Shown: one piece after another, positions 116 to 54,535 of the stretch
Numbering within the stretch: the stretch's first letter is position 1
How the letters are laid out: each line of letters starts with the position of its first letter
Assembly (NCBI GenBank): GCA_964016885.1
Contig: OZ024744.1
Span: 89,590,001-89,654,000, forward strand
Length of the DNA: 64,000 bases
Source of the DNA: Eledone cirrhosa
Taxonomy: Eukaryota
Direction: 5' to 3'
Program-made: the position numbers and the translations under genes
The notes under the pieces: model-generated
Told to the model about the DNA's origin: nothing
The model's database searches: none
What the model saw: the letters and a program-made list of their open reading frames with translations, nothing else

Positions 116-419
116 CATATATTCTGATTATGTGAATGTTTTCATTTATTAATATTCTGAATAATATATATATATATATGAAACACAAATTTAAAAATTT
201 TGAAGACCAACACAATGCGTTATGATGGTTGTTAAAATTGCCAAGATAACAAAAGAATCTTACCTTAGCAAATTTAACGATCCCAAATACCCATTATCAA
301 GGGAGTGGCAATATAAGAGACTATCCAATTGATTTTAAGTATCTTATAGGGTCCCTCCCTTGATAATGGGTTTTTAAAACTATTTGGGATCGTTAAATTT
401 TATATACATTACGTGCTAG

Positions 420-1770
420 ATTCCCGGACTTCCACACGGGAATATACCGCGGCGATGGTCTGACCCTATGGAGCCTTAAAAGTGCTCACGACCTCGACCG
501 GTTTAAAAAAGATTTAATTTCTACTTTTAATGAGTTAGGACTTAGGATAACAGTAGCTACCAACCTCTCTAGCGTAGATTTCTTAGACATAAATTTAGAC
601 CTTCATACACATATCTTCAGACCCTTCCATAAACTAAACGAAAAACTTAATTACATACACAAGGACTCATGCCACCCTCCTACTGTTTTTAGAAACTTCC
701 TAAATAATATCGGTACTAGAATCTCTAACCTCTCCTCTAATAAAGCAATCTTTGACAGAGCAGCCCCCTACTACAACACGGCGTTAGCTAACAACGGCTT
801 CTCGCAACCAATTACTTTCACCTCCGCTAACAACAACAACAATAAAAAAAGAAATCGTAACAATAAACAAACTATCTGGTTCTCTCCTCCCTTCTCACTC
901 ATCGTTAAAACTAATGTAGGAAAAATGTTGTTAGCCCTCTTAGATAGACACTTTCCCATAGGTCTATACTGCTCCATCTTTAACAGACACAGAGTAAAAC
1001 TAGGGTACTCCTGCGCTAAGAATATGAAGGCCCACATCACAGACAGTCCTAAGAGCGGCACCCCATCAGGATGCTCTTGCAGAAAGCCTGAAGCTTGTCT
1101 CTTTCAACAATGCAACACACCCGCTGTAGTTTGTGAAGCTGTGGTCACTTCCAACCGACCAAATCAACAACAGGAGGTCAAATCCTATGTGGGTATGGCG
1201 GAGGGCCGGTTTGAGGAACGCTTCCTGAACCATCAGTCGACCTTTAGGTTCTCGAACAAAAGATCATCCACGAAGCTCGCGAGCCACGTATGGTCTCTGA
1301 AGGACTCAGGTATAGACTACTCCATTCAATGGAAAGCTATCACTAAGTCCACGCCATACGCATGGAGTAATCTGTCTTGTGGACTGTGTATTGAAGAAAG
1401 AATCAATATTCTAAGGAGGTTACGCAATAGCGATTGCTTAAATTCAAGAAATGAACTTTTCTCATGTTGTCCACACGTCTGGAAACACCTCTTGCATAAC
1501 TATAAAGCTCCGGATTGAATAACATCAAGATTCTAATATTCTAATCAACTCGAACAATTTATTCCGGACATTCGCAGTTATCTCCCTTACACCTTTCGAC
1601 CGTGGATTTTAATCGCTTAGGACAAGTGACTGTTTCTGCGCATGCGCGTTCATACTGTTGTTTCTCCTTTTCTTGTTCCGTATAACCATTATCAGTCCGA
1701 GCTTAAGATCCGCATAAGGTAAAACAATCGTTCTCGGTATGGTGAACTAACTGTTGCGTTACTACTTATT
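420..1770 (+). mobile_element. 5'-truncated, degenerate Penelope-like retroelement (RT C-terminus, GIY-YIG endonuclease, 3' pLTR)
   Basis: YRGDG/DFLDI RT remnants, IWFSPPFS, CSCRKPEAC linker, VCEAVV..SYVGMAE..F..RF.NH GIY-YIG, CGLCIEE, NSRNE..SCCPH (ORF 925..1518). 3' end runs into (TA)n and carries a decayed hammerhead at 1697-1737. Confidence 0.9.
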
Positions 1771-9556: not shown

Positions 9557-9865
9557 TTAAATATATATATATCAAAGAAATAGGATTTCACTTGAAGCAT
9601 AGCTTTATACATTATGTATAGATATTTCGTATCTCCAAAGAAATACGGTTTTAGGAAGCTGTAGCTATGCAAACACCGGAGGGCTAACGCCCTCTGGTGA
9701 TGTCCAGCAGAAGCAAAGGGGGCAACCGTCTATGCATTTCAGGCTTAGCTGGCCATCGTCAGGACGGTCCCTACCACCGCTTGCGACTGTTGGACTAGAT
9801 GACAGACGAGAATATATAGTTTTCTCGTCTGTGTATAGTTTTCTCAGTCGCAAGCGGTGGGAGGG

Positions 9866-9909
9866 ACCGTCCTGACGATGGCCAGCTAAGCCTGAAATGC
9901 ATAGACGGT
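9866..9909 (+). ncRNA. Type I hammerhead ribozyme, with a mirror copy on the minus strand at 9725-9768
   Basis: ACCGTC-CTGACGA-tGGCcagctaaGCCt-GAAAT-GC-ATA-GACGGT. Palindromic ATGCAT stem III. Lies in inverted repeat 9700-9933. Confidence 0.85.
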
Positions 9910-9929
9910 TGTCCCCTTGCTTCTGCTGG

Positions 9930-10720
9930 ACATTTATTATAATGCTCGGTGTGTTTGTAAACAAACATCCCGTATTAAGCCGTAGTGTCCAGCAACCATC
10001 GTTGCTCGTTTGTTCAACACTGACAAAGGAACGCTGTACTAGTTTCAAGCTTATTAGCTATCATCAGCAACGTATACCTTCCTGCCAGATTGTTGAACGT
10101 ATTTACTTACCTTATGCATATTAACGGCTGAGTGGCCCAATTTGCATATCGAGTGGGTTAATCGGCCGGGTGCACCGAAAACGATAAACGCAAAAATGTA
10201 ACGAAATTTCATTTCCCACTCTTAGTACGGCTTTTACTTAAATATAAGTATGTACACGTACATACATATATGTATGCAGACGTACAGTAGTATGTATATA
10301 TATATATATATATATACATACATGCACACATATATATATGTACGTATGGATTCACCGAATATTTATTATAATGCTCGGTGTGTTTGTAAACAAACATCCC
10401 GTATTAAGCCGTAGTGTCCAGCAACCATCGTTGCTCGTTTGTTCAACACTGACAAAGGAACGCTGTACTAGTTTCAAGCTTATTAGCTATCATCAGCAAC
10501 GTATACCTTCCTGCCAGATTATTGAACGTATTTACTTACCTTATGCATATTAACGGCTGAGTGGCCCAATTTGCATATCGAGTGGGTTAATCGGCCGGGT
10601 GCACCGAAAACGATAAATGCAAAAAATGAAACGAAATTTCATTTCCCACTCTTAGTACGGCTTTTACTTAAATATAAGTATGTACACGTACATACATATA
10701 TGTATGCAGACGTACAGTAG

Positions 10721-10772
<52 letters not shown>

Positions 10773-12032
10773 CATGCACACATATATATGTACGTATGGA
10801 TTCACCGAATATTTATTATAATGCTCGGTGTGTTTGTAAACAAACATCCCGTATTAAGCCGTAGTGTCCAGCAACCATCGTTGCTCGTTTGTTCCACACT
10901 GACAAAGGAACGCTGTACTAGTTTCAAGCTTATTAGCTATCATCAGCAACGTATACCTTCCTGCCAGATTGTTGAACGTATTTACTTACCTTATGCATAT
11001 TAACGGCTGAGTGGCCCAATTTGCATATCGAGTGGGTTAATCGGCCGGGTGCACCGAAAACGATAAACGCAAAAATGTAACGAAATTTCATTTCCCACTC
11101 TTAGTACGGCTTTTACTTAAATATAAGTATGTACACGTACATACATATATGTATGCAGACGTACAGTAGTATGTATATATATATATATATATATACACAC
11201 ACATGCACACATATATATATGTACGTATGGATTCACCGAATATTTATTATAATGCTCGGTGTGTTTGTAAACAAACATCCCGTATTAAGCCGTAGTGTCC
11301 AGCAACCAACGTTGCTCGTTTATTCAACACTGACAAAGGAACGCTGTACTAGTTTCAAGCTTATTAGCTATCATCAGCAACGTATACCTTCCTGCCAGAT
11401 TATTGAACGTATTTACTTACCTTATGCATATTAACGGCTGAGTGGCCCAATTTGCATATCGAGTGGGTTAATCGGCCGGGTGCACCGAAAACGATAAATG
11501 CAAAAAATGAAACGAAATTTCATTTCCCACTCTTAGTACGGCTTTTACTTAAATATAAGTATGTACACGTACATACATATATGTATGCAGACGTACAGTA
11601 GTATGTATATATATATATATATATATACATACATGCACACATATATATATGTACGTATGGATTCACCGAACATTTATTATAATGCTCGGTGTGTTTGTAA
11701 ACAAACATCCCGTATTAAGCCGTAGTGTCCAGCAACCATCGTTGCTCGTTTGTTCAACACTGACAAAGGAACGCTGTACTAGTTTCAAGCTTATTAGCTA
11801 TCATCAGCAACGTATACCTTCCTGCCAGATTGTTGAACGTATTTACTTACCTTATGCATATTAACGGCTGGGTGGCCCAATTTGCATATCGAGTGGGTTA
11901 ATCGGCCGGGTGCACTGAAAAAGATAAATGCAAAAAAATGAAACGAAATTTCATTTCCCACTCTTAGTACGGCTTTCACTTAAATATAAGTATGTACACG
12001 TACATACATATATGTATGCAGACGTACAGTAG

Positions 12033-12076
<44 letters not shown>

Positions 12077-12474
12077 CATGCACACATATATATGTACGTA
12101 TGGATTCACCGAATATTTATTATAATGCTCGGTGTGTTTGTAAACAAACATCCCGTATTAAGCCGTAGTGTCCAGCAACCATCGTTGCTCGTTTGTTCCA
12201 CACTGACAAAGGAACGCTGTACTAGTTTCAAGCTTATTAGCTATCATCAGCAACGTATACCTTCCTGCCAGATTGTTGAACGTATTTACTTACCTTATGC
12301 ATATTAACGGCTGAGTGGCCCAATTTGCATATCGAGTGGGTTAATCGGCCGGGTGCACCGAAAACGATAAACGCAAAAAATGAAACGAAATTTCATTTCC
12401 CACTCTTAGTACGGCTTTTACTTAAATATAAGTATGTACACGTACATACATATAAGTATGCAGACGTACAGTAG

Positions 12475-12522
<48 letters not shown>

Positions 12523-13359
12523 CATGCACACATATATATATATGTACGTATGGATTCACTGAACATTTATTATAATGCTCGGTGTGTTTGTAAACAAACA
12601 TCCCGTATTAAGCCGTAGTGTCCAGCAACCATCGTTGCTCGTTTGTTCAACACTGACAAAGGAACGCTGTACTAGTTTCAAGCTTATTAGCTATCATCAG
12701 CAACGTATACCTTCCTGCCAGATTATTGAACGTATTTACTTACCTTATGCATATTAACGGCTGAGTGGCCCAATTTGCATATCGAGTGGGTTAATCGGCC
12801 GGGTGCACCGAAAACGATAAATACAAAAAATGAAACGAAATTTCATTTCCCACTCTTAGTACGGCTTTTACTTAAATATAAGTATGTACACGTACATACA
12901 TATATGTATGCAGACGTACAGTAGTATGTATATATATATATATATATATATATACATACATGCACACATATATATATGTACGTATGGATTCACCGAACAT
13001 TTATTATAATGCTCGGTGTGTTTGTAAACAAACATCCCGTATTAAGCCGTAGTGTCCAGCAACCATCGTTGCTCGTTTGTTCAACACTGACAAAGGAACG
13101 CTGTACTAGTTTCAAGCTTATTAGCTATCATCAGCAACGTATACCTTCCTGCCAGATTGTTGAACGTATTTACTTACCTTATGCATATTAACGGCTGGGT
13201 GGCCCAATTTGCATATCGAGTGGGTTAATCGGCCGGGTGCACTGAAAAAGATAAATGCAAAAAAATGAAACGAAATTTCATTTCCCACTCTTAGTACGGC
13301 TTTCACTTAAATATAAGTATGTACACGTACATACATATATGTATGCAGACGTACAGTAG

Positions 13360-13399
<40 letters not shown>

Positions 13400-13689
13400 C
13401 ATGCACACATATATATGTACGTATGGATTCACCGAATATTTATTATAATGCTCGGTGTGTTTGTAAACAAACATCCCGTATTAAGCCGTAGTGTCCAGCA
13501 ACCATCGTTGCTCGTTTGTTCCACACTGACAAAGGAACGCTGTACTAGTTTCAAGCTTATTAGCTATCATCAGCAACGTATACCTTCCTGCCAGATTGTT
13601 GAACGTATTTACTTACCTTATGCATATTAACGGCTGAGTGGCCCAATTTGCATATCGAGTGGGTTAATCGGCCGGGTGCACCGAAAACG
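9930..13689 (-). repeat. Tandem array of about 8.7 monomers (429-450 bp), each with a hammerhead ribozyme on the minus strand
   Basis: Near-identical units. Hammerheads start at 10031, 10460, 10910, 11341, 11771, 12214, 12664, 13098 and 13537. Length variation comes mainly from an internal (TA)n tract. Confidence 0.95.
10031..10073 (-). ncRNA. Minimal type I hammerhead ribozyme (representative of 9 array copies)
   Basis: Minus strand reads ACGTTG-CTGATGA-tAGCTaataAGCTt-GAAAC-TA-GTA-CAGCGT: 6-bp stem I, intact core, stem II, palindromic ACTAGT stem III, GUA cleavage triplet. Confidence 0.9.
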
Positions 13690-14499
13690 CTAAGTTTGAC
13701 TCAACAAGACGTTTCCATAGCGATGCTGCGAGTACGCGGTGATTTCTTGGAGTAATAATAAATCAAGAAAATAGAGTGGCATGGTTTGCTTTACAATAAG
13801 GGCTTTATTCACATTGCTGACAATTGTTTCTCTGAACTGGTAGGTCTAGAGATCGCTACCCGCCTGTTTTTGCGTCAATCGATCACCAATACTTTGTTAT
13901 AACCAGTCTATTCATTAGAGCATGCGAGAATGAAGGAAATACACAGGCATGGCTTCTATATATAGTAGTGGCATTAAAGCAGAACAATAATAACAATACT
14001 CAAATAAATTAGCTAGACTGTAAAGAGTTAAAATAATCACAACATCAATCTAATTAAGAAATAGAGTATACTGATGACTTTAGCATGTAAAATGAGCTGA
14101 TACGAAGCCAATGTATGAAATTGACATGTAAAAGCTGTCATGGGGTATATTATATATAGTGTAGAGATAACCTGGGGCTTGAAACAATGAACCATTTACT
14201 TTACTGTAGGTTTGCTGACCGTAAGATTTATTTATTATCTGACAGATAAAATATTTTCATTGTAGTGAGGATGGTAATCTTTATGTGGTGTGAAGCGGAT
14301 TCATTATATAAGTGGTCTATATTAGATGAAGGGATTGTTAGTTCGAATCATGGGGTTGTTTAGCTTTCACAGCATCAATAACAAATCATGCATGGATAAG
14401 ACAACAATAACAACAATATAGGCGGTAAGGTAATACAGCGGTTAAGGAAGCAAGGTATATATAGGGAACATGATGAATACTATTACGGATACATTGGGG

Positions 14500-15371
14500 T
14501 GTTCATTATAACAACAGGAGGAAAGAACACTTCTTTGTGCCCCTCTGATATTCATTTGAGTGGTCTAAAATAGATCAATCAATCGTGTATGAAATATTTC
14601 TATCTTTAAACTCCCACACTTTATTAGCCAGTGCCGTAGATGTTCTTTTCTAAGGGTGTTTGAATGAAGTGACATGTGCATAATACCTGATTTTAAATTT
14701 GTCTTGTGTCATGCCCACATATCGCTCACTTCTGGCTGGTTGGTTATTTATAATGGGTGTCAGTTTGGCTTCATATACAATAAATTTTGTATTACATATG
14801 CACTGTAAGGGGCATTCTTCTGGTTTCCTGCAACTACATCCTGGGTTTCCTTTAATTTTATTTGATTTGGTGATTTTGGATTTCATTGATGGGCAGCAAG
14901 AGTAGCTAATTTTAACTAAATTTCTATTAAATATCTTATTATATCTATGATGTTGGGGAAATGTTTGTCTAGGAGTTCGAGGAATTTTCTTCTTACGTTA
15001 GTTTTAACTGTTAGAGAGAAAGGTGGGGTAAACCATATAATTTTTCTTTTTCTGTTATTGTGTTTAGTGGTAGAAGGAGGAGTGAGTATATATTTGGATT
15101 TATGATAGGGTTTGAAAGAAGCAGTAAGTAGGTCAAGATTGATATCGAGGAAGTTGGTATTAGTTAGGTTCGTATTTATAGTAATTTTTGGGTTTAGGTT
15201 AGAGAAGGTTTTAATTAAAACTTTACAGAATTTATCAAGATCATGGCCGTTGGTGGTATGAAAAACAGCCAAACCATCGTCTCGGTATAAGCCGATATTA
15301 TGACTAGGAAATTTTTCTTTAAGGAGGAATAATCCAACTAAATCGCACACATCGGCGCTATCGAAAGAGCC

Positions 15372-15374
<3 letters not shown>
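14500..15374 (-). mobile_element. Degenerate Penelope-like retroelement fragment, same group as 420-1770
   Basis: GSFDSADVCDLVG, LYRDDGL, NFLDI, IIWFTPPFS, GCSCRKPEECPL, IVYEA..RYVGMT (ORFs 14916..15431 and 14650..14886). 5' end abuts (TA)n. Confidence 0.9.
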
Positions 15375-29280: not shown

Positions 29281-29328
<48 letters not shown>

Positions 29329-31622
29329 CATGGCTAGTTAACGGCATTACATTCCTGCTACCGAAGAATGATGAGACAAACAATCCCAAAAATTACAGAC
29401 CGATAACCTGCTTGACCACAATGTATAAAATTTTAACATCAGTCCTAACTGAATACACATATGACCACCTGATAACAAATGACCTATTTCCCATTGAGCA
29501 GAAAGGGTGTAAACGAGGCTCATATGGCTGTAAGGATCAGCTTCTGGTTAACAAAATGATACTGGAAGATTGTCATAATAGACACAAAAATCTATCGATT
29601 GCTTGGATAGATTATAAAAAAGCATTTGATAGTTTGCCACACAGTTGGATTGAAAAATGTTTAGAGATTTTCAAAATATCCCCCGTTGTCAGGAGGTTTT
29701 TGTCATTCAGTATGAGGACATGGAGAACGACACTCCTTTTGAATAGTGAAACAAAATCACTGGAAGCTGGAGAAGTTAACATTAATTGTGGAATTTTTCA
29801 GGGTGACTCTTTATCACCGCTTTTATTCTGCATCGCACTTATACCATTAAGTAAAATGCTCAATGAAACAAAACATGGATATAGAGTCTATGACAAAACC
29901 ATTAATCACCTGTTCTACATGGATGACCTGAAACTATTCGCAAAAAATGATGAACAATTGCAAGGGCTATTATCCACTGTGAAGCAGTTCAGTGATGACA
30001 TTAAAATGGAGTTTGGACTGGATAAATGCGCCAAAGCAACGTTCACCAGAGGAAAGCTGCTGAAGAGTTCAGACATTAATCTTGATCGGGGGAACGTGAT
30101 AAGAGAGCTTGATCAAGAACAAACTTACAAATATCTAGGTGTTTGTGAAGGAGACGGAATCAAGCACTCGACAATGAGGGAAAGGATAAGGAAGGAATGT
30201 TACCGCAGAGTCAGAGCAATCTTAAGAACGGAATTGAATGCAAGGAATAGGATCGATGCCATAAACACGCTTGCCATACCAGTAGTAACCTACAGTTACA
30301 ATGTCATCAACTGGTCAAGCACAGAGATCCGTAGGCTCGATACAAAAATCCGAAAATTCTTAACCATGCACAGAATGCATCACCCTAAGGCAGACATAGA
30401 TAGAATATATCTCCCTAGGAAAGAAGGAGGACGTGGGTTAATCCAGTTAGACATTGCGTTGAAAACTGCAACAATTGGATTATCCACATATCTAAGGGAA
30501 TCACATGATTGGATGATCAAACTCGTTTTGAAACACGAAAGCACCAAAAGATCATATTCCATTACAAAAGATGCACAAAGATACAGTAATGGACTACAAA
30601 TTTCAGAAGTCCCATTTACTGCTGAAATGGAAAACACAGAAAAAGCAAAGCAGGTAAAAGTAACTGCAAAGAAAGAACTGCTACAGAAACTGGCTAAGAA
30701 ATGGCAAGAAAAGCCTCTGTATGGAAAATACCCAGAGCGAGCTAACAATCCTGATGTTGACAAAACTTTAACCCATCAGTGGTTGGCATCCTCTGGACTG
30801 AAATCGGAGACTGAAGGACTGATTATATCCGCACAAGATCAGTGTCTGCCAACAAAAAATTACCAAGCCAACATAATAAAAAATGGGTGCAGCCCATTAT
30901 GCCGTGTATGTAAAAAAACAACCAGAGACCATTGACCATATAATTTCAATGTGCAGTCCTATAGCTCCAACCGAATACCTAAACAGGCATGACAGAGCTG
31001 CACAATACATACATTGGATAATGTGTAAGCATTTTGACCTGCCCCATCAAAAGAATTGGTGGGAGCATCAACCACCTCCCATACTTGAAAAAGATCACAT
31101 CTCAATCTTGTGGAACTTTAGCATCCAAACAGACCGAAAAATAGATGCAAATAGACCTGATATAATATTGAAGGACTTTCAAAGGAGGGTATGCCTGCTA
31201 ATTGATATGTCTGTTCCAATAGACAAGAATGTATCTATAAAAACATTTGAAAAATTGAGCAAGTATAAGGACCTGGAGATAGAAATTGGAAAAATGTGGA
31301 AATTGAGAACTAAAACAATACCAGTGGTTGTAGGCGCTCTGAGAATGATACCTAAGTGTCTAACGACTACTTATCGCAAATCCCAGGAAACCCGCGTATA
31401 GGAGAAATACAAAAGATAGTACTAATGGGAACTGCCCATATACTAAGGAAGATCCTGTCAATATAAGTACATCACAAGTCTAAACACTAAGGATGCATGT
31501 GTGAATATGTGTGTTCTTTCTTGAACATGGCGGACCTTGTTGTCTCTTGAGGTCACTGGTTGTGACTTGGTGATAACTCGTATAAACATAAAGCAAGATA
31601 AATAATAATAATAATAATAATA
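29329..31622 (+). mobile_element. 5'-truncated R4/Dong-like RLE non-LTR retrotransposon A
   Basis: NYRPITCL, DYKKAFDS, GIFQGDSLSP, FYMDDLKL RT. CRVC..ETIDHIISMC zinc knuckle, RHD, NRPDI..IDMSVP..K..KY endonuclease. Two frameshifts. (AAT)n on both sides. Confidence 0.93.
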
Positions 31623-33050
31623 ATGCAGTTTGGTATTGGTAAATGTGGAGTCATTGTGATGAAGAGGGGTAGGTTGAGCAGAAGTAACGGGATCCAGATA
31701 CCAACAGGTGAGATGATAAAGGAAATTGACTCTGAGGAAGGATACAAGTATTTGGGCGTTCTGGAGGCTGATGGCATAAAGAACAAAAAAATGAAGGAAT
31801 TGTTAAGAACTGAATACATTCGGAGAGTAAGGAGCGTATTGAAGTCACATCTGAACAGCAGAAATGCCATAAGCGCAGTAAATTCCCGAGCTGTGTCTAT
31901 TATTAGGTACAGTGCGGGAATTCTGAGATGGAATGTTGCTGAACAAAAAGAAATGGATAGGAAGACTAGGAAGCTATTGACTATCTACAACATGTTCCAC
32001 AACAGGAGTGATGTCGATAGACTCTACCTAAGGAGATCTGAGGGTGGAAGAGGTCTTATCAGCATAGAGGACTGTGTTCAGATGGAGAAAAACAACCTAT
32101 ACAAATACGTGACCTATAGTAAGGAGCCAATGCTCAGAGCTGTACTGAAGGAGGGGACAGTAGGCCAGGGGATATCCAAGGAGGAAATAACATCAAGGAG
32201 GAAGAGCAGCCTTAAGGGAAAATCCCATCATAGTACCTTCTTTGAGAAAACTGAATTTAGAGATCCATAGACATGGAACTGGTTGAGAAGAGGAGACCTC
32301 AAAAAGGCTACAGAAGGAATTCTAATGGCTGCGCAGGAGCAGGCCCTCAAAACGAAGTGGTTGAAGCACCATATCTACAAGGAGGAGGCTAGCCCACTGT
32401 GCAGGATCTGTGGAGAGAGAGAGGAGACTGTGGCTCACATTGTGTCCGAGTGTAAACACCTAGCCCAGACCCACTATAAGGGCTGGAGACAGATGTGATG
32501 GGCAGGGTGATCCACTGGCACCTGTGCAAAGTAAACAATCTACCACATTCTGAGAAATGGTATGAGCATAGGCCAGAGGCGGTGATGGAGAACAGTCAGG
32601 TGAAGGTGCTGTGGGATTTTAGGATACAGACGGACAAAAAACTGGAACACAATAGACCTGACCTGGTGGTTGTGGACAAAGAAAAAAGATCGTGCCTGAT
32701 TGTGGATGTGGCCTGCCCGTTCGACACGAGAGTGCAAGAGAAGGAGAGGGAGAAAATTAACCGATACCAGGACCTAAAGTGGGAGGTGAAAAGGATTTGG
32801 AACTGCCATGAAGTCAAAGTGATCCCGATTGTCATAGGCGCACTGGGGACTATCTCCAAAGGTTTCCAGGGATGGTTAAAGAAAATCGGCCCCTTCACGC
32901 TTTTTGGAACGCTTCAAAAGGCATTCTTGCTTGGAACAGCAAGAACCCTCCGATACGTCCTGAATATCTGAGGCTGCAGGTAGTGGCTTGATATTCAATC
33001 CAACGGACTTTCCAGTTAACCAACATCAATGACTGAGATTCAAGGAATAA
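31623..33050 (+). mobile_element. 5'-truncated R4/Dong-like element B (3' end duplicated at 33362-33596)
   Basis: MQFGIGKC, YKYLGV, DVDRLYL.R..GGRGL, CRICGEREETVAHIVSEC, NRPDLV..IVDVACP. (AAT)n on both sides. Confidence 0.92.
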
Positions 33051-33077
33051 CAATAACAATAATAATAATAATAATAA

Positions 33078-33790
33078 TAATTGTTTCTACTTTAGGCACA
33101 AGGCCAGCAAATACCCAGTGCATTACTGGTACTTTATTTTATCGACCCCGTAAGGATGAAAGGCAAAGTCAACCTCGGTGGGATTTGAACTCAGATCGTA
33201 ATAATAATAATAATTGTTTCTACGTTAGGCACAAGGCCAGCAATTACCCAGTGCATTACTGGTACTTTATTTTATCGACCCCGTAAGGATGAAAGGCAAA
33301 GTTAACCTCGGCGGGATTTGAACTCAGAATGGCAAGGGCCGTAACTCTATACGTCAAAGCAATGAAGTCAAAGTGGTCCCGATTGTCATAGGCGCACTAG
33401 GGACTATCTCAAAGAGTCTCCAAGGATGGTTAAAGAAAATTGGCTCCGCCCCGCTTTTTGGAACACTTCAAAAGGCATGCTTGCTGGGAACAGCAAGAAC
33501 CCTCCGATACGTCCTGAATATCTGAGGCTGCTGGTAGTGGCTTGATATTCATTTCAACAAACTTTCCAGTTAACTAACATCAATGACTGAGACTCAATAA
33601 TAATAATAATTGTTTCTACTTTAGGCACAAGGCCAGCAATTACCTAGTGTATTACTGGTACTTTATTTTATCGACCCCGTAAGGATGAAAGGCAAAGTCA
33701 ACCTCGGCAGGATTTGAACTCAGATCGTAAAGGGACGTAACTATGCTGGAAAGCATGGCGTCCGACCCTCTACTGATACTGCCAATCCAC
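33078..33790 (-). mobile_element. Three copies of the same SINE between Dong-like elements (others at 23988-24105, 28966-29025, 35605-35825, 44688-44870, 44883-45067)
   Basis: Same consensus as the 49.9-56.4 kb cluster. Confidence 0.85.
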
Positions 33791-33804
33791 AATAATAATA
33801 ATAG

Positions 33805-35595
33805 TTATAGAATTGACAACAAAAAAATAAGCCACCTATTTTATATGGATGATTTGAAGCTATATTTCAAAGATAATGACGAACTGGAAGGCCTTTTGCC
33901 GACATTAAAAACGTTTAGCCATGACATCAGGATGGAGTTTGGACTTGACAAGTGTGCAAAAGCCACTTTCAAGAAGGGGAAGCTTGTCAACTCAGACTCA
34001 GTTGAATTGGATGCTGAAACAATCATAAAGGAACTTGAGCAGGAACAAACCTATAAATACTTAGGGATTAATGAGGGCTCTGGCATACAGCATGCAAGTA
34101 TGAAAGAGAGGAGAAGGAAATAATGTTATAGGAGAGTATGTGCAGTTCTGAGATCAGAACTAAACGCTCGTAACAAGGTGCTAGCCATAAATTCCTTGGC
34201 AGTCCCAGTTGTCACTTATAGCTTCGGTGTGTTGAACTGGAATATGAGTGAAATCAAAAGAATCGACACCAAAGTCCGTAAGCTACTGACCTGTAATAGG
34301 ATGCACCGCCCAAAAGCAGATGTGGATCGTCTTTACCTTCCTAGAACTCAAGGAGGCCGTGGCCTGATCCAATTTGAACTTGCTTACAAGACCACCATCA
34401 TTGGACTGGCCAAATACCTTGAAACAACTAACGGCTGTATGCTGAAACTTGTTGAAAAGCATGAGAGAAGTAAGAAGCTTCCTTCTATCTTGAAGGAGAG
34501 CAAACAATATTCTACTGATCTCATGCTTGATACCCAGGCTGGACAGACTAAAGAAACTGTTGCAACTGATGCTGCTAGGCACATGAAATCACTGGCAAAA
34601 GCAAAAGGGCAAGGACAATCAGTATCAAATTGGGAGCAGAAACCTCTGCATGGCAAATATGTGGCCCGTAGCAAACAAGCTGATGTTGACCAAAAGCACA
34701 CCCATCAGTGACTACGTAGTTCAGGGCTAAAGGTGGAGAGTGAAGGCTTCATCTTAGCTCCACAAGATCAAAGCTTATTGACTCGTAATTACCAGGCCAA
34801 TGTGATGAGAAACGGAATAAACTCAAAGTGCCGATTCTGCAATACTGAGGTTGAAACAGTGGATCACTTAGTCTCTGGATGTAAAGTTTTAGCACCAGTA
34901 GAATACAAATATAGACACGACAGAGTTGGCCAATATCTACACTGGGTAATATGTCGGCATTACAAAATCAAAGCTGAAGACAAGTGGTACAATCATCACC
35001 TTGAAGCTGTAACTGAAGGAGAAAAAATAACAATTCTCTGGGACTTTCCTGTACATACTGACAGGAACATAAAAGCAAATAGACCTGACATCATTGTAAA
35101 AGATCAACATAATAAGGTCTGTTTGTTCATAGATATGAGCATCCCATGTGATCACAATATCGCGGCAAAAGAATTTGACAAGCTACGAAAATATAAAGAT
35201 CTGCTTATTGAAATTGAGAAAATGTGGCACCTCAAGGCCGTTACAATACCAGTGATTGTGGGAGGGCTGGGAATGATCAAGAAAGGAACAGAACAATATC
35301 TGCGAATGATTCCTGGTTTACCCTCTCTGCACGAGGTGCAAAGAATTGTTTTGCCTGGTACTGCACACGTATTGAGAAGAGCACTATCTCTGTAAGATTG
35401 ATATCCCTCCTTGTATTTATATATGCATATGCACATGTGTATATATGTATAATGTTGTTGTTTTTTTAAATTATAATCAATATGCTGTATTAACTGGCTT
35501 ACCAATGCACACTATGAGTTTATTTGCCCTAGGTGTCAGGAAGACACTCGGCATATATCTCAGAAACAATAATGAAAGAAAATAAAAACAATGAT
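33805..35595 (+). mobile_element. 5'-truncated R4/Dong-like element C
   Basis: HLFYMDDLKL, CRFC..ETVDHLVSGC, RHD, NRPDII..IDMSIP. In-frame stops. (AAT)n flanks. Confidence 0.92.
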
Positions 35596-53801: not shown

Positions 53802-53829
53802 ATTTCTATACTATATATATATATATATA

Positions 53830-54499
53830 AACGGAAAAAATGAAACGAAATTTCATTTCTCACTCTTAGTACGGCTGTTACTTAAATATAAGTATGTATA
53901 CGTACATACATATATGTATACAGACGTACAGTAGTTTGTATATATATATACATACATGCACACATATATATATGTACGTATGAATTCACCGAACATTTAT
54001 TATAATGCTCGGTGTGTTTGTAAACAAACATCCCGAATTAAGCCGTAGTGTCTAGCAACCATCGTTGCTCATTTGTTCAACAGCCGTACTAAGAGTGAGA
54101 AATGAAATTTCGTTTCATTTTTTTCCGTTTATCATATTCGGTACCCCGGCCAATTAACTCACTCGATATGCAAATTAGGCTGCTCAGCCGTTAATATGCA
54201 TAAGGAAAGTATATACTTTCAGACGTTCAACCATCTAGCAGGAAGGTATACGTTGCTGACGATAGCTAATAAGCTTGAAACTAGTACAGCGTTCCTTTGT
54301 CAGTGTTGAACAAATGAGCAACGATGGTTGCTAGACACTGTACGGCTTAATTCGGGATGTTTGTTTACAAACACACCGATCATTATAATAAATGTTCGGG
54401 GAAGCCATACGTACATATATATATGTGTGCATGTATGTATATATATATATACATACTACTGTACGTCTGTATACATATATGTATGTACGTATACATACT

Positions 54500-54502
<3 letters not shown>
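53830..54502. repeat. Dispersed copy of the 9.9-13.7 kb monomer family: partial copy (53830-54081) joined to an inverted near-full monomer (54082-54502)
   Basis: High visual identity to the array unit. Intact hammerhead on the plus strand at 54250-54292. Confidence 0.9.
54250..54292 (+). ncRNA. Type I hammerhead ribozyme, array family
   Basis: ACGTTG-CTGACGA-tAGCTaataAGCTt-GAAAC-TA-GTA-CAGCGT. Confidence 0.88.

Positions 54503-54535
<33 letters not shown>

Follow-up and report, generated by a model that had tools for sequence, protein, structure and literature searches.

Non-LTR retrozymes (LTR, long terminal repeat) and their RNA circles are established in coral, mussel and axolotl; their proposed movers are Penelope-like elements (PLEs) (PMC7229834). 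Vertebrate retrozymes are tied to PLEs by co-occurrence and by homology to the pseudo-LTRs (pLTRs) of these elements, in a survey of 35 species, none of them a mollusc (bioRxiv 10.64898/2026.07.22.740005). PLE insertions are 5'-truncated, often come with an inverted copy, and carry a tail of 30-40 bp at one end only (PMC8557442, Fig. 2 legend). In vitro, this tail corresponds to the stretch between two internal start sites of the reverse transcriptase (RT), and cleavage by the protein, which is predicted to be a dimer, favours AT-rich DNA and affects both strands (PMC11167929). PLEs of the Hydra clade are reported to target (TA)n (PMC8557442). The present report concerns a tandem array of hammerhead-bearing units in the cephalopod Eledone cirrhosa, within a stretch of 64,000 nucleotides (assembly GCA_964016885.1, contig OZ024744.1, positions 89,590,001 to 89,654,000 of the forward strand), which is called the window in what follows. 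The array is one copy of a large, genome-wide family of non-coding repeats, and this family is quite probably a non-autonomous non-LTR retrozyme with a predicted ribozyme, copied in trans by the RT and GIY-YIG endonuclease of PLEs, probably via circles.

The Eledone repeats share several traits with the metazoan non-LTR retrozymes described in PMC7229834, such as short, non-coding tandem units with a GC content under 50%, a canonical type I hammerhead with a palindromic loop 3, a highly self-paired predicted RNA, co-occurring PLEs, and a U·U mismatch as in axolotl HHR_Amex2. They differ in a unit slightly longer than the reported 170-400 nt, in being known here from sequence alone, and in copies that show a two-site tail and inverted short-plus-long insertions, whereas PLEs are only candidates in that account. 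As for the vertebrate retrozymes, a dependence on PLEs is concluded and copies range from monomers to long arrays, but the Eledone evidence is an insertion footprint, without homology to the PLE terminal regions tested (bioRxiv 10.64898/2026.07.22.740005). With endonuclease-bearing (EN+) PLEs, namely the Hydra clade and anole Poseidon, the family has in common 5' truncation, an inverted partner, a tail at one end and a (TA)n target, as well as two internal RT start sites with the hammerhead 5' of them; in contrast to those elements, its unit has no open reading frame (ORF), its tail measures 55 nt (about 70 in a sister family) instead of 30-40 bp, and both of its arms can be multi-unit concatemers (PMC8557442, PMC11167929). 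Non-autonomous Chlamys elements, such as MRC1, are likewise non-coding, PLE-dependent and found as multicopy head-to-tail insertions, but they belong to green algae and to a clade described as devoid of canonical hammerheads, and their 3' end resembles that of the autonomous partner (PMC8557442), a likeness that was looked for in Eledone and not found.

The class of element is a known one, and what stands out here is the unusually clear insertion footprint. No description of a cephalopod retrozyme was found in the literature searched; the supplements of PMC7229834 and of the bioRxiv preprint, and one file of PMC4209133, lay outside this coverage and could list cephalopod motifs. In the giant squid genome paper, 235 Hammerhead_1 matches are counted. 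The finding would extend retrozymes to cephalopods. The papers cited present two questions as open, namely how animal retrozymes return to DNA and why PLE insertions contain inverted copies of which only one end has a tail. Both become addressable in this genome, where retrozyme units number in the tens of thousands, a sister family is very young, and PLEs of the Hydra type include young, intact ones.

Genomic copies and their insertion ends

The exact 28-nt hammerhead core has 11,400 matches in the 3.0-Gb genome, whereas its reversed control has none, so the core is not a chance occurrence. A 17-mer common to more subfamilies gives 32,427 matches (control, 1), and a search with the monomer returns 1453 candidates, 40 of which were scored and match at 97-100%. 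A preliminary description, based on the letters of the window and their reading frames, had proposed a genome-wide search for other arrays, and more than 11,000 dispersed matches have come to light. The copies range from monomers through multimers and are present in high number, as in other non-LTR retrozymes.

Insertion ends were mapped in 106 loci, taken in genome order, which remained from the first 100 matches of each pattern (28-nt core and 17-mer) along contig 1 after removal of overlapping loci and one segmental duplicate. Individual loci are given below by L numbers, and unit positions are counted from window base 9933 on the + strand. Read in the sense of the ribozyme, the 3' ends fall at two fixed sites 55 nt apart, position 307 (the short end) and position ~252 (the long end), and (TA)4 lies within 40 nt at 131 of the 145 ends called. 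The 5' ends are scattered, a pattern of random 5' truncation at a (TA)n target, and such targets mask target-site duplications. Many insertions consist of two arms whose 5' sides meet. In 38 of 39 such inverted pairs a short end is combined with a long one (binomial p about 1e-10; two of the 38 are local duplicates of each other), and the lone exception is a miscall, its left end being actually long.

The same rule holds in the sister retrozyme family, whose unit of 466-470 bp is homologous over its full length. Helix II starts with a G-C pair in this family, and its pattern is matched about 11,000 times in the genome. All 15 pairs that could be resolved among 17 are short plus long, with one end lying 16 nt short of the long site, and three further pairs bring the count to 18 of 18, in loci that were best matches or were picked as long arrays and are thus not a random sample. 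From the 3' ends in the array's own family we infer that unit positions 252 and 307 are the start sites of reverse transcription. The sister family had emerged from a weak profile match in the search for a coding partner, which led to this second retrozyme and not to a coding element. It is very young, with arrays of up to 31 units and near-identical inverted concatemers (L156:2023-2233, L247-L281, L323-L327), and represents the best material for cleavage and circle tests.

The hammerhead motif and its conservation

The array holds nine type I hammerheads on the minus strand, with the conserved core (CUGANGA, GAAA, NUH) and three helices. They are identical from helix I through helix I, as the preliminary description had noted, and the cut that it placed between 10037 and 10036 agrees with the predicted site after GUA in unit 1. 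Its label of a minimal hammerhead, in contrast, was wrong: helix I runs for ~10 pairs beyond a UAU bulge and loop 2 is of the UAAUAA type, so the motif is canonical. Helix II begins with a U·U mismatch (10.1:11.1) in place of the G10.1-C11.1 pair, a point that the preliminary description did not mention. Axolotl HHR_Amex2 is described with the same mismatch, its monomer cleaving weakly and its dimer better (PMC7229834). In Rfam, the unit has no match at the gathering score; Hammerhead_HH9 matches over the full model with 22.5 bits (E 0.007), against a gathering cut-off of 52, and Hammerhead_1, the model that the preliminary description had put forward, is absent from the unit's Rfam matches, sub-threshold ones included.

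The predicted monomer RNA is strongly self-paired (z -9.6; 0 of 100 shuffles), partly owing to the alternating purine-pyrimidine run, and when the unit is folded as a circle 69% of it is predicted to be paired, with a pairing probability of 0.0 for helix III. Matches to microRNAs at the E-value level were rejected, since they derive from the (TA)n hairpin. Contigs of three sequencing runs presumed to be RNA, the run type being guessed, gave short matches in the TA-rich part or nothing, which weighs neither for nor against transcription, and no RNA run was listed among the sequencing runs carrying the sequence.

When 123 loci are compared, a second allele present in at least 4 of them occurs at 0 of 11 core positions, versus 83 of 249 positions outside the ribozyme, although core conservation is inflated by the choice of 74 of these loci on the exact 28-nt core. 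One pair of helix I, whose 5' side lies outside the selection pattern, takes the form U·G in 64 loci, G·U in another 28 and A-U in a further 24; between subfamilies, helix I covaries. Among 11 haplotypes (each in at least 2 loci), 99.2% of cells pair, a value that none of 500 shuffles reaches, and helix II of the sister family is compensated (GUUG/CAAC versus GAUG/CAUC). These patterns indicate that the ribozyme is kept under selection across the family; the doubly changed pairs, two in number, are ordinary (299 of 500 shuffles) and, together with the inflation of the core, count against it.

Enzyme, template and competing explanations

The preliminary description had suggested that a Penelope RT could mobilise the repeat in trans. 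Judged from the insertion footprints, namely the two 3' ends and the mixed inverted pairs, such a movement by Penelope-like enzymes is likely, and the label of candidate retrozyme holds good for a non-coding element of the non-LTR type. As a control, a young PLE family with many intact 713-codon frames shows two 3' ends separated by ~90 nt, which lie in (TA)n in 24 of 25 copies, and its protein carries CxCx5C, CxxC and CxH, motifs described for the Hydra clade, which targets (TA)n. In an older PLE family, the two ends are separated by ~66 nt, again in (TA)n, and one copy is an inverted long-plus-short pair. PLE proteins were not recognised by Pfam, and the Atlas groups one of them with HTH_animal clusters at 0.99.

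Several PLE loci are worth recording in their own right. The young Hydra-type family is found at L334, L335, L339 and other loci, and its terminal region holds a hammerhead-like motif with an altered core. At L339, an array of the retrozyme family ends in (TA)n just 5' of an intact PLE frame of the same sense, so that one transcript could carry both. Open frames at L079, L139, L183 and L220 appear to resemble Naiad-type PLE reverse transcriptase.

The proposed cycle would start with read-through transcription into a multimeric RNA. Neighbouring hammerheads are predicted to cut this RNA as dimers via the ACUAGU palindrome, and the pieces would be ligated to circles, mostly monomers with some dimers. 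An endonuclease, which the footprint leads us to presume, would nick a (TA)n site on both strands, whereupon a pair of RT active sites would start on one RNA, the first at the short site and the second 55 nt further 3', at the long site. Each RT would then copy through the unbroken ribozyme, over up to several units, and stop at random, after which the two cDNAs would meet at short microhomologies, giving an inverted insertion with a tail at one end only. Shared variants show that arrays subsequently enlarge by local duplication, a step through which the window array has also passed. It is possible, if somewhat doubtful, that a dimer of PLE RT acts on a single ribozyme-made circle at the two fixed sites, each subunit being primed from one nicked (TA)n strand and both rolling. 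Such a twin rolling-circle start would write an inverted concatemer pair in one event and seed a satellite. The short-plus-long rule would then be a genomic read-out of twin-subunit initiation and would account for the Penelope tail and the inverted pLTRs in general.

As to the template, opposite arms differ by a median of 2.2% (91 comparisons), versus 9.1% between loci, and they share private variants, as seen at L241 (7 of 7 units) and L218 (8 of 9); therefore, one RNA, or one source, serves both arms. Passes that extend to a point 11 nt 3' of the cut number 100, scored by eye and not all independent; 13 of them stop in the next 52 nt, and two stop within 3 nt of the cut, compared with 1.8 expected at a flat rate. 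The cut thus shows no accumulation of 5' ends, which means that linear RNA released by cutting is not the main template. In the sister family, L324 carries 6.9 plus at least 6.8 inverted units with one differing base, at the junction, and the eight pieces at L272 are identical except for one 18-nt duplication. Uniform young concatemers of this kind favour a circular template, and circles probably rank first and linear multimers second. Arms that end at a shared unit position (L115, L183, L153) were left unused as a sign of a nicked circle, because the sites lie in palindromic stretches.

A number of observations weigh against a retrozyme that is cut, circularised and copied by PLE enzymes. The opposite arm falls outside the closest 10% in 13 of 37 pairs, and four loci (L275, L141, L158, L278) hold two monomer types on both arms, so that a monomer circle is not the sole template. 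Long arms frequently show local duplication, and uniform arrays could reflect smoothing by the assembler. Weak cutting is to be predicted from the U·U with which helix II begins and from the 2-bp helix III, and eight of nine predicted Xenopus retrozyme dimers are reported to be inactive in vitro (bioRxiv 2026.07.22.740005), while an anole PLE used mainly uncut RNA as its RT substrate in vitro (PMC11167929). No coding partner sharing the unit sequence was found among three PLE families or in a profile scan of 1.28 Mb, nor does any of the three PLE terminal regions resemble the unit above shuffles, so that the PLE enzyme is a presumed one. The mixed monomer types, the frequent local duplication and the dominance of uncut RNA for the anole enzyme would all fit a PLE-driven family whose template is mostly linear, uncut read-through RNA, with circles absent or a by-product and array length regained by local duplication; the absent pile-up at the cut is compatible with it as well. 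However, the two arms at L324, with at least 6.8 identical units, would then require seven tandem hammerheads of the G-C type to have stayed uncut, and the compensatory helix changes suggest that cutting matters for spread; a mostly linear template is unlikely.

The remaining explanations dispense with an independent retrozyme. It is very improbable that the units are pLTRs shed by a coding PLE that was not found, with the family made up of its truncated copies. Although the window array adjoins a decayed PLE of the same sense, an intact PLE frame follows the family array at L339, and Xenopus retrozymes are related to pLTRs (bioRxiv 2026.07.22.740005), all 39 other matches to the 3' region of the adjoining PLE stop at the junction with the array, and the copies read continue with a 3' end of their own; the array was accordingly rejected as the terminal repeat of this PLE. 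In addition, many arms are longer than one unit, and in these the end of a unit is followed by the start of the next without coding sequence, and the unit shows no likeness to the PLE terminal regions beyond that of shuffles. The preliminary description had raised the question of whether other copies are always the tails of coding Penelope elements, and at the loci examined they are not. A chance ribozyme-like motif in an ordinary satellite, in a local duplication or in an assembly artefact might explain the dimer and trimer higher-order patterns in the window array and the lack of an Rfam match at the gathering score, but it deserves next to no credence: for the family it is refuted, since copies are dispersed in a number above 11,000, their ends are fixed, short ends pair strictly with long ones and helices covary, and the window units differ from one another, so the array is not one read simply repeated.

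The window array, its neighbours and other hammerhead families

Tandem Repeats Finder, applied to the 64-kb window, places the array at 9930-13693, with 8.6 copies and 95% matches. Full units start at 9933, 10362, 10812, 11243, 11673, 12116, 12566 and 13000 and measure, in this order, 429, 450, 431, 430, 443, 450, 434 and 439 bp, followed by a partial unit of 251 bp (Table 1). Of the nine tandem monomers of 429-450 bp given in the preliminary description, the lengths and the nine ribozymes stand, whereas the monomers come to 8.6, that is eight full units and a partial one. It was right to call the units non-coding and their internal (TA)n variable: the (TA)n runs count 11-22 repeats, the longest ATG-started frame across the array has 107 aa, and the unit lacks the ORF with RT and GIY-YIG domains that defines an autonomous PLE.

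All nine units share the alleles 171T and 202G, and the eight full ones also share 301T; the units therefore descend from one template. One variant pattern is repeated in units 4-6 and 7-9, in higher-order dimer and trimer patterns, which points to local duplication. Of the local duplication and the assembly artefact that the preliminary description had considered, local duplication accounts for part of the nine-unit length, but not for the dispersed family elsewhere. Neither end of the array is canonical, both having been lost by deletion. As (TA)n is the normal terminus of either neighbour, the array was likely inserted into a shared (TA)n, with the deletions following or accompanying the event. 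The array is therefore atypical for its family, with both ends lost, local expansion and no detected daughters: the 12 matches outside it to one of the private alleles 202G and 171T all lack the second. Its nine units are not extreme, as the sister family reaches an arm of 31 units.

Table 1. Coordinates of the array, its parts and other features in the window (position 1 is the first base of the window)
Feature	Position	Strand	Remarks
Tandem array	9930..13689	-	ribozyme sense minus; 8 full units and partial unit 13439-13689
Type I hammerhead core, unit 1	10031..10073	-	helix I of 6 bp, CUGAUGA, U·U plus 4-bp helix II, GAAA, 2-bp helix III with palindromic ACUAGU
Hammerhead cores, other units	10460-10502, 10910-10952, 11341-11383, 11771-11813, 12214-12256, 12664-12706, 13098-13140, 13537-13579	-	
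Extended helix I	10020..10088	-	bulge and about 10 further pairs
Alternating purine-pyrimidine region	10239..10345	-	variable (TA)n, predicted long hairpin; short end at the 3' foot of the hairpin
55-nt tail	10184..10238	-	between the two fixed 3' ends known from other copies; long end 10184 (unit position 252), short end 10239 (position 307)
Left neighbour	9558..9933	.	inverted pair of a distantly related hammerhead family; cores 9872 (+) and 9762 (-); array starts at a 4-nt microhomology, ACAT, which truncates the right arm
Right neighbour	13694..15374	-	decayed, 5'-truncated PLE; C-terminal part of RT and GIY-YIG region; cut ~95 nt before its usual 3' end at the array
Second, typical family copy	53827..54507	.	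inverted pair; long end left, short end right, both in (TA)n
Coding-PLE fragment	397..1518	+	outside the array, used as query and control; 373-codon open frame, YRGD and GIY-YIG-like motifs

The left neighbour was considered as a miniature inverted-repeat transposable element and rejected, being an inverted pair of another hammerhead family. This third family has 1978 candidates, occurs in inverted pairs with two outer ends ~50 nt apart and likewise starts its helix II with a U·U. At L089, L143, L172 and L241:5260-6111 there is a fourth tandem repeat, which has a period of about 310 bp, a small hammerhead and, again, an inverted copy. Further hammerhead-like cores of other repeat families, some in inverted pairs, lie at window positions 60, 5015, 6515/6664, 23719, 36208, 38053 and 60874, among others, and window positions 29328-35395 hold several fragments of non-LTR retrotransposon reverse transcriptases of up to 535 codons.
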